Source of the DNA: an uncultured Syntrophales bacterium
Lineage (GTDB): Bacteria > Desulfobacterota > Desulfomonilia > Desulfomonilales > Desulfomonilaceae
DNA length: 64,000 nt
Assembly (NCBI GenBank): GCA_964385875.1
Contig: CAYLRL010000001.1
Coordinates: 112,131-176,130, forward strand
Direction: 5' to 3'
Position 1 is the first letter of the stretch. Every line of letters starts with the position of its first letter. The notes beneath the pieces were generated by a model. It ran no database searches and was not told the DNA's origin. It saw only the letters and a list, made by a program, of their open reading frames with translations. Position numbers and translations under genes: made by a program. This document shows, one piece after another, positions 63,558 to 64,000 of the stretch.

Positions 63558-63793
63558 CTCGTCGAGTCCTTTCCACAATCCGATCCCCCGTGACGCTCGC
63601 GTCCTCCGGACGGTTGCGGTCCGCCCCCAAATAGTGTTAAATGATGATATATATAGGCGGAGGCTATGATCGAGGGGCGAAGCGACGCGCCGGCAGCCGT
63701 ACCCTGGTCGTCCGCCTCGAATCGAAACCCGATCGATCCGGTATCGGTCGGGCCGGCCGATCACACCCTCACCGGCCCGAAGATGAGGTTCGA

Positions 63794-64000
63794 ATGAAGA
63801 ATGACGCGATCACATTAACGTCGCTGTCCAAAACCTCCGGTTGAGCCGCCAAGATTGGTCCGGGGGACCTGGACCTAGCGCTGTGCGGACTCGACATACC
63901 GATCCCTCCCGAGGCGCTGACGGGTGTCGGTGGTTCCGAGGACGCGGGTGTGTACAAATTGAACGATACGACCGCCTTGGTGCAGACGATTGATTTTTTC
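63794..64000 (+). CDS. selD: Selenide, water dikinase SelD, 5' part; selenocysteine (UGA) at codon 17; runs off the right edge
   Basis: MKNDAITLTSLSKTSG-TGA(63842-63844)-AAKIGPGDLDLALCGLDIPIPPEALTGVGGSEDAGVYKLNDTTALVQTIDFF. The frame stays open through the TGA. The TGA aligns with the catalytic Cys17 of E. coli SelD (GAGCGCK), and the K aligns with Lys20. Confidence 0.8.
63857..63869 (+). promoter_or_regulatory. Candidate bacterial SECIS-like hairpin core (GGUCC-GGG-GGACC)
   Basis: A 5-bp G/C stem with a G-rich loop starts 12 nt after the UGA. It is short, and the extended pairing could not be evaluated by eye. Confidence 0.3.

Follow-up and report, generated by a model that had tools for sequence, protein, structure and literature searches.

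A selD-like reading frame at the 3' edge of the window (the whole stretch of DNA that was analyzed, 64 kb, G000:C1:112131-176130) is interrupted by an in-frame TGA at codon 17. The question raised by this locus is whether the TGA ends the gene or is read as selenocysteine (Sec). The sequence, its relatives and the remainder of the genome indicate that the locus is almost certainly the 5' end of a functional Sec-type selD, in which UGA-17 is decoded as Sec by means of SelB and a downstream hairpin. A sequence-only reading of the same DNA had reached a similar view, and its separate claims were compared with the results given below.

The selD reading frame and its product

The frame begins with ATG (63794-63796), continues as MKNDAITLTSLSKTSG and reaches the TGA at 63842-63844. 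Past this codon it is open to base 64000 and translates as AAKIGPGDLDLALCGLDIPIPPEALTGVGGSEDAGVYKLNDTTALVQTIDFF, starting with AAKIGPGDL and ending with SEDAGVYKLNDTTALVQTIDFF at the window edge. The earlier claim that an in-frame TGA interrupts selD, with the frame remaining open to the edge, was thus borne out by translation. On the parent contig the gene terminates with TGA at window-equivalent 64841-64843, giving a product of 349 residues (Table 1). The start codon is fixed by related genomes: in many of the 30 loci fetched from them (see below), an in-frame stop lies a short way upstream of the corresponding Met.

For model scoring, the 349-residue product was written with C in place of U. 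The downstream frame had been called SelD by eye, and the full-length product scored 359 bits against the SelD equivalog model TIGR00476 (cut-off 125), in agreement with that call, and 314.7 bits against NF002098 (cut-off 299). The 69-residue piece inside the window matched TIGR00476 by itself (E 4e-14). In keeping with a PurM-like fold, the AIRS N-terminal domain (PF00586, 94.2 bits) was located at residues 49-156 and the AIRS C-terminal domain (PF02769, 66.4 bits) at residues 169-341. In a genome-wide TIGR00476 search the gene scored 352.7 bits with 1 TGA, and it was the only selD in the genome (99% complete). A second match to the SelD model, at C46, was ThiL and was rejected as a Cys-type back-up.

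The best matches of solved structure were SelD of E. coli (3u0o, 2.6e-69) and of Aquifex aeolicus (2yye, 1.3e-67). The alignment to E. coli SelD was gapless over residues 2-36 and placed U17 on Cys17 and K20 on Lys20, as the sequence-only reading had proposed; the match as a whole extended over residues 2-337 with the same numbering. D50, D67, N86, D90 and the D of CTDITGFG were identical to E. coli D51, D68, N87, D91 and D227 (3u0o), which we take from the published structures to be residues of the ATP/metal site. The E. coli enzyme differs in having Cys (UGC) at position 17, no SECIS, and the loop GCGCK, compared with GUAAK here.

Two upstream neighbors in the window, a YkuD-domain protein and an oxidoreductase alpha-like protein (Table 1), have no evident tie to selenium metabolism; the former had no NCBIfam match. 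On the other side of selD, shortly after the window ends, 100 N in a row (either a gap in the scaffold or sequence that was withheld) are bordered on both sides by repeat copies, GGCCCCGGTGAGGCGATGAGATTGCTTCGCTCCGCTCGCAATGACAC and GGCGCCGGTGAGGCGCTGAGATTGCTTCGCTCCGCTCG; the repeat is likely a dispersed one at which the assembly broke.

Table 1. Positions of features at the selD locus and of Sec-related genes elsewhere in the genome. Numbers without a contig label are window positions.
Feature	Position	Strand	Evidence or remark
selD 5' part, codons 1-69 of 349	63794..64000	+	ORF translation, TIGR00476
selD, full gene	G000:C1:175924-176973		parent contig
Probable ribosome-binding site (GAGG), 5 nt upstream of the ATG	63785..63788	+	suggested by sequence reading
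UGA codon 17, predicted Sec (catalytic Sec/Cys position of SelD)	63842..63844	+	alignment, conservation
AAG codon for Lys20, a lysine conserved in the N-terminal glycine-rich loop	63851..63853	+	E. coli alignment
Putative bacterial SECIS upper stem-loop	63857..63875	+	folding, relatives' pairing; overlaps G-P-G-D-L-D codons
Hairpin 5' arm GGUCCGGG	63857-63864		
Hairpin loop GGA	63865-63867		
Hairpin 3' arm CCUGGACC	63868-63875		
Upstream neighbor, 362 residues	62469-63557	+	YkuD L,D-transpeptidase domain (PF03734), HGC motif
Upstream neighbor, 594 residues	60223-62007	-	indolepyruvate/2-oxoacid:ferredoxin oxidoreductase alpha-like; POR_N, TPP_enzyme_C, 4Fe-4S domains
100-N run with flanking repeat copies, 3' of selD	64900-65100 (window-equivalent)		
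selA	C3:25647-26993		581.9 bits
selB	C25:24830-26707		381.6 bits, model positions 1-580 of 581, C-terminal region included
tRNA-Sec (selC)	C17:25767-25860		73.4 bits, anticodon TCA (UCA)
FdhA-type molybdopterin oxidoreductase, 3 copies			motif H-x-A-R-x-U-H; one in-frame TGA each
MvhD/FlpD, 3 copies			G-U-H-x-G-x-C-H-Y in two, C-H-W-U in one; one in-frame TGA each
HdrA, 2 copies			motif FPTNDCxxU; one in-frame TGA each
SO_0444-family Cu/Zn efflux transporter, 1 copy			motif L-U-S-C; NF033936, 358 bits; one in-frame TGA
The nine preceding genes, outside the window, each with its TGA at the canonical Sec position	G000:C1:53276, C1:56291, C6:5122, C6:6743, C6:9981, C54:30110, C28:13156, C106:3156, C40:6196		
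DUF5619 protein, 103 residues, outside the window	G000:C180:2484-2792	+	PF18505, 86.5 bits; in-frame TGA at C180:2673
DUF5619 paralogue	C7:83204-83488		Cys at the TGA site, no stop

Conservation of the TGA and competing readings of the codon

Orthologues were searched for in 40 related genomes (24 from the same family, plus 16 from another family within its class), and 30 loci were fetched. Exactly one in-frame TGA was found in the selD orthologues of 40/40 relatives, at protein identities of 47-72%, and it occupied the same G-U-A-x-K column in 30/30 of the fetched loci. The recurrence of the codon at one column in related selD genes is not due to chance. Columns A10 and A11, in the region of the Lys20 codon, were invariant across the 30.

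One alternative is a genome-wide reassignment of UGA (to Trp or Gly, for example), or its read-through by a near-cognate tRNA in place of Sec-tRNA. This was judged very unlikely. Codes that assign an amino acid to TGA do leave the frame open, but TGA is the commonest stop of this genome (59.5% G+C), ending 1170/2185 long coding-like ORFs, and it also terminates selD itself; therefore the code is not reassigned. Cys-type homologues have their catalytic Cys at the aligned residue, and a dedicated tRNA-Sec (anticodon UCA), SelA and SelB are all encoded in the genome.

Loss of function through a nonsense mutation at codon 17 would agree with the behavior of a table 11 ORF caller, which stops at 63844, and would make selD a pseudogene. 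Such a pseudogene is extremely improbable, as the TGA is retained at the same column in relatives (40/40 with one TGA) down to 47% identity, the 332 downstream codons are intact with every catalytic residue kept, and this is the sole selD of a genome in which selA, selB, selC and no fewer than nine further Sec genes have been retained. The sequence-only reading had favored recoding over a pseudogene, and on this point the relatives support it.

A restart of translation downstream of UGA-17, which would give an N-terminally truncated SelD, has next to no probability. An in-frame GTG is present at codon 53, but codons 18-52 are without ATG, GTG or TTG, the protein encoded from the UGA to codon 53 is conserved in all relatives, and a codon-53 start would lose the glycine-rich loop with Sec17 and Lys20. 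In E. coli, SelD mutants indicate that the glycine-rich loop is needed for activity.

Finally, the TGA could stand for a TGC or TGT through an error of sequencing or assembly, and the enzyme would then be a Cys-type SelD. This needs a difference of only one base, but is scarcely credible given the TGA in 40/40 relatives, the SECIS-like hairpin 3' of the codon, and a Logan contig (run SRR7048219, different assembler; window 59712 to 64675-equivalent, 3 mismatches/4964 bases) that is identical at the TGA.

The hairpin 3' of the UGA

Decoding of UGA-17 as Sec would depend on an RNA element downstream of it, and a hairpin is found there. A GGUCC-GGG-GGACC hairpin beginning 12 nt after the UGA had been noted by eye. 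The starting point (63857) was correct, but the 5 bp stem with its GGG loop was replaced by a stem of 8 bp with a GGA loop, which was the most stable and best conserved register (-12.6 kcal/mol for the 8-bp hairpin alone vs. -7.0 kcal/mol for the 5-bp register). The 64 nt from the UGA fold at -26.6 kcal/mol; shuffled sequences average -19.5 (z = -2.2).

The bacterial SECIS (bSECIS) model of bSECISearch, as a review presents it (PMC13188914 Fig. 2), allows 3-9 nt in the loop and 4-16 bp in the stem, and asks for G at the loop's first two positions, a UGA-to-loop distance of 16-37 nt and MFE <= -7.5 kcal/mol. With 8 bp, a GGA loop, 20 nt from UGA to loop and -12.6 kcal/mol, the selD hairpin falls within the model on all four constraints; its loop is of the smallest size allowed, and binding of SelB is a prediction. 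In some relatives the register appears to be shifted, giving a loop of 5 nt. An Rfam search around the UGA with permissive thresholds returned chance-level matches only and no bacterial SECIS family.

As RNAalifold alone, run on 30 sequences, predicted three apical pairs and no others, stem pairs were counted on the stated structure. Across the 30 relatives the eight stem pairs were 89% formed, and pairing dropped to 57% or less when the 3' partners were slid along. Compensatory changes were observed at pair 23-27 (G-C to A-U in four sequences) and at pair 17-33 (G-C to C-G in one sequence), and the observed covariation score was reached by 0/500 shuffles. Four-fold degenerate sites in the stem were limited to pairing bases: column 18 was T in 29/30, and column 21, opposite U29, was G or A only. 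At the degenerate loop site, column 24, all four bases occurred. The covariation support suggested by these alignments is real but modest, with 2/8 pairs involved in a conserved coding stretch of related genomes.

Two other structures were considered and set aside. The 5-6 bp register (loop GGG) was 86% paired, with no two-sided changes and a score not above shuffles, at -7.0 kcal/mol. Folding of the single sequence also gave a long lower helix that takes in the UGA; this helix was only 65% paired in relatives and was dropped.

The four sequences with the change at pair 23-27 were class-level relatives in which GGG-GAC (Gly-Asp) has become GAG-GUU (Glu-Val), turning G-C into A-U, such that the protein change coincides with the compensatory change in the RNA. 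As the hairpin is made of the catalytic-loop codons (G-P-G-D-L-D), there may be mutual constraint between the RNA structure and the sequence of the active site; this idea is taken up again below.

Selenocysteine machinery, other Sec-type genes and meaning of the locus

The sequence-only reading had expected a full Sec machinery, together with other genes split by UGA. The genome is 99.2% complete, and selA, selB and tRNA-Sec(UCA) were all present, so that the first expectation was confirmed. The FdhA, MvhD, HdrA and SO_0444 transporter genes of Table 1 answer the second. These belong to listed selenoprotein families (PMC1794560, PMC13188914). At least nine further Sec genes were counted in a scan that relied on family searches or on a Cys paralogue within the genome, and the selenoproteome is probably larger than these nine and selD. 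A codon-usage score separated true Sec sites from noise poorly (the score upstream in selD was ~0) and was replaced by the Sec/Cys paralogue search. Most of what that search matched paired TGA with R or G; these matches were artefacts of antisense frames and were not kept. The tRNA 2-selenouridine synthase selU (TIGR03167) was not found in the 99% complete genome, and selenophosphate seems to serve selenocysteine synthesis only in this organism.

A separate observation concerns a DUF5619 protein with an in-frame TGA in the motif A-I-C-U-G-D-D. Its paralogue and the homologues in 15 relatives have Cys at that site and no stop; one truncated match, in relative G007, also has TGA. The codon may represent either a lineage-specific Cys-to-Sec change or a pseudogene. 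DUF5619 was not found named among the selenoprotein families in the review PMC13188914.

By analogy with the E. coli system, SelB-GTP carrying Sec-tRNA(Sec) would bind the hairpin and deliver selenocysteine to UGA-17, yielding the 349-residue enzyme with the catalytic loop G-U-A-A-K. As a selenide, water dikinase, known too as selenophosphate synthetase, SelD would then convert selenide and ATP to selenophosphate, from which, with Ser-tRNA(Sec), SelA would form Sec-tRNA(Sec), and this would supply both SelD and no fewer than nine further selenoproteins of the organism. As the sole selD is Sec-dependent and selU is lacking, selenium activation would rely on a self-sustaining loop. That it forms such a loop with no Cys-type back-up, and that the SECIS RNA and the active-site sequence constrain each other, is put forward tentatively, as a possibility about which we are somewhat doubtful.

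The nearest named SelD relatives were from Syntrophaceae, Smithella, a 'delta proteobacterium' and Dehalococcoidia MAGs, at ~50% identity. The loop of A. aeolicus SelD (2yye/2zod, 2zau), SGCAAKVGPGDL, almost equals SGUAAKIGPGDL here, with the UGA on its loop Cys. The native Aquifex protein is itself a Sec enzyme that was crystallized as a Sec-to-Cys variant; it comes from another phylum, and its C-terminal half is more diverged.

FdhA and SelD have the widest distribution of the bacterial selenoproteins (PMC1794560), and among prokaryotic selenoprotein families SelD ranks second in breadth of distribution, its Sec lying in the selenium-binding loop at the N-terminus (PMC13188914). Of the selenoprotein-rich Deltaproteobacteria that PMC1794560 tabulates, most are listed with a Sec-type SelD, including Syntrophobacter fumaroxidans, Syntrophus aciditrophicus, Desulfovibrio vulgaris and Geobacter spp. 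(PMC1794560 Table 3). The Sec-type SelD of Deltaproteobacteria/Desulfobacterota shares with the present gene the in-frame UGA in the N-terminal glycine-rich loop, and both occur with selA, selB, selC and many FdhA, FrhD/MvhD and HdrA selenoproteins; there was no difference of substance. The Sec-type selD described here is an already known, widespread arrangement in anaerobic bacteria.

The locus is a further example of a class already well described, and it raises no new biological question. Its main value is in annotation. A table 11 ORF caller would give a 16-residue or 67-residue stub, so that selD is missed or truncated, and the same caller would likewise miss or truncate at least nine other genes (FdhA, MvhD, HdrA, Cu/Zn efflux transporter). 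With the Sec trait recognized, the genes of formate and hydrogen metabolism in this anaerobe can be modeled correctly.
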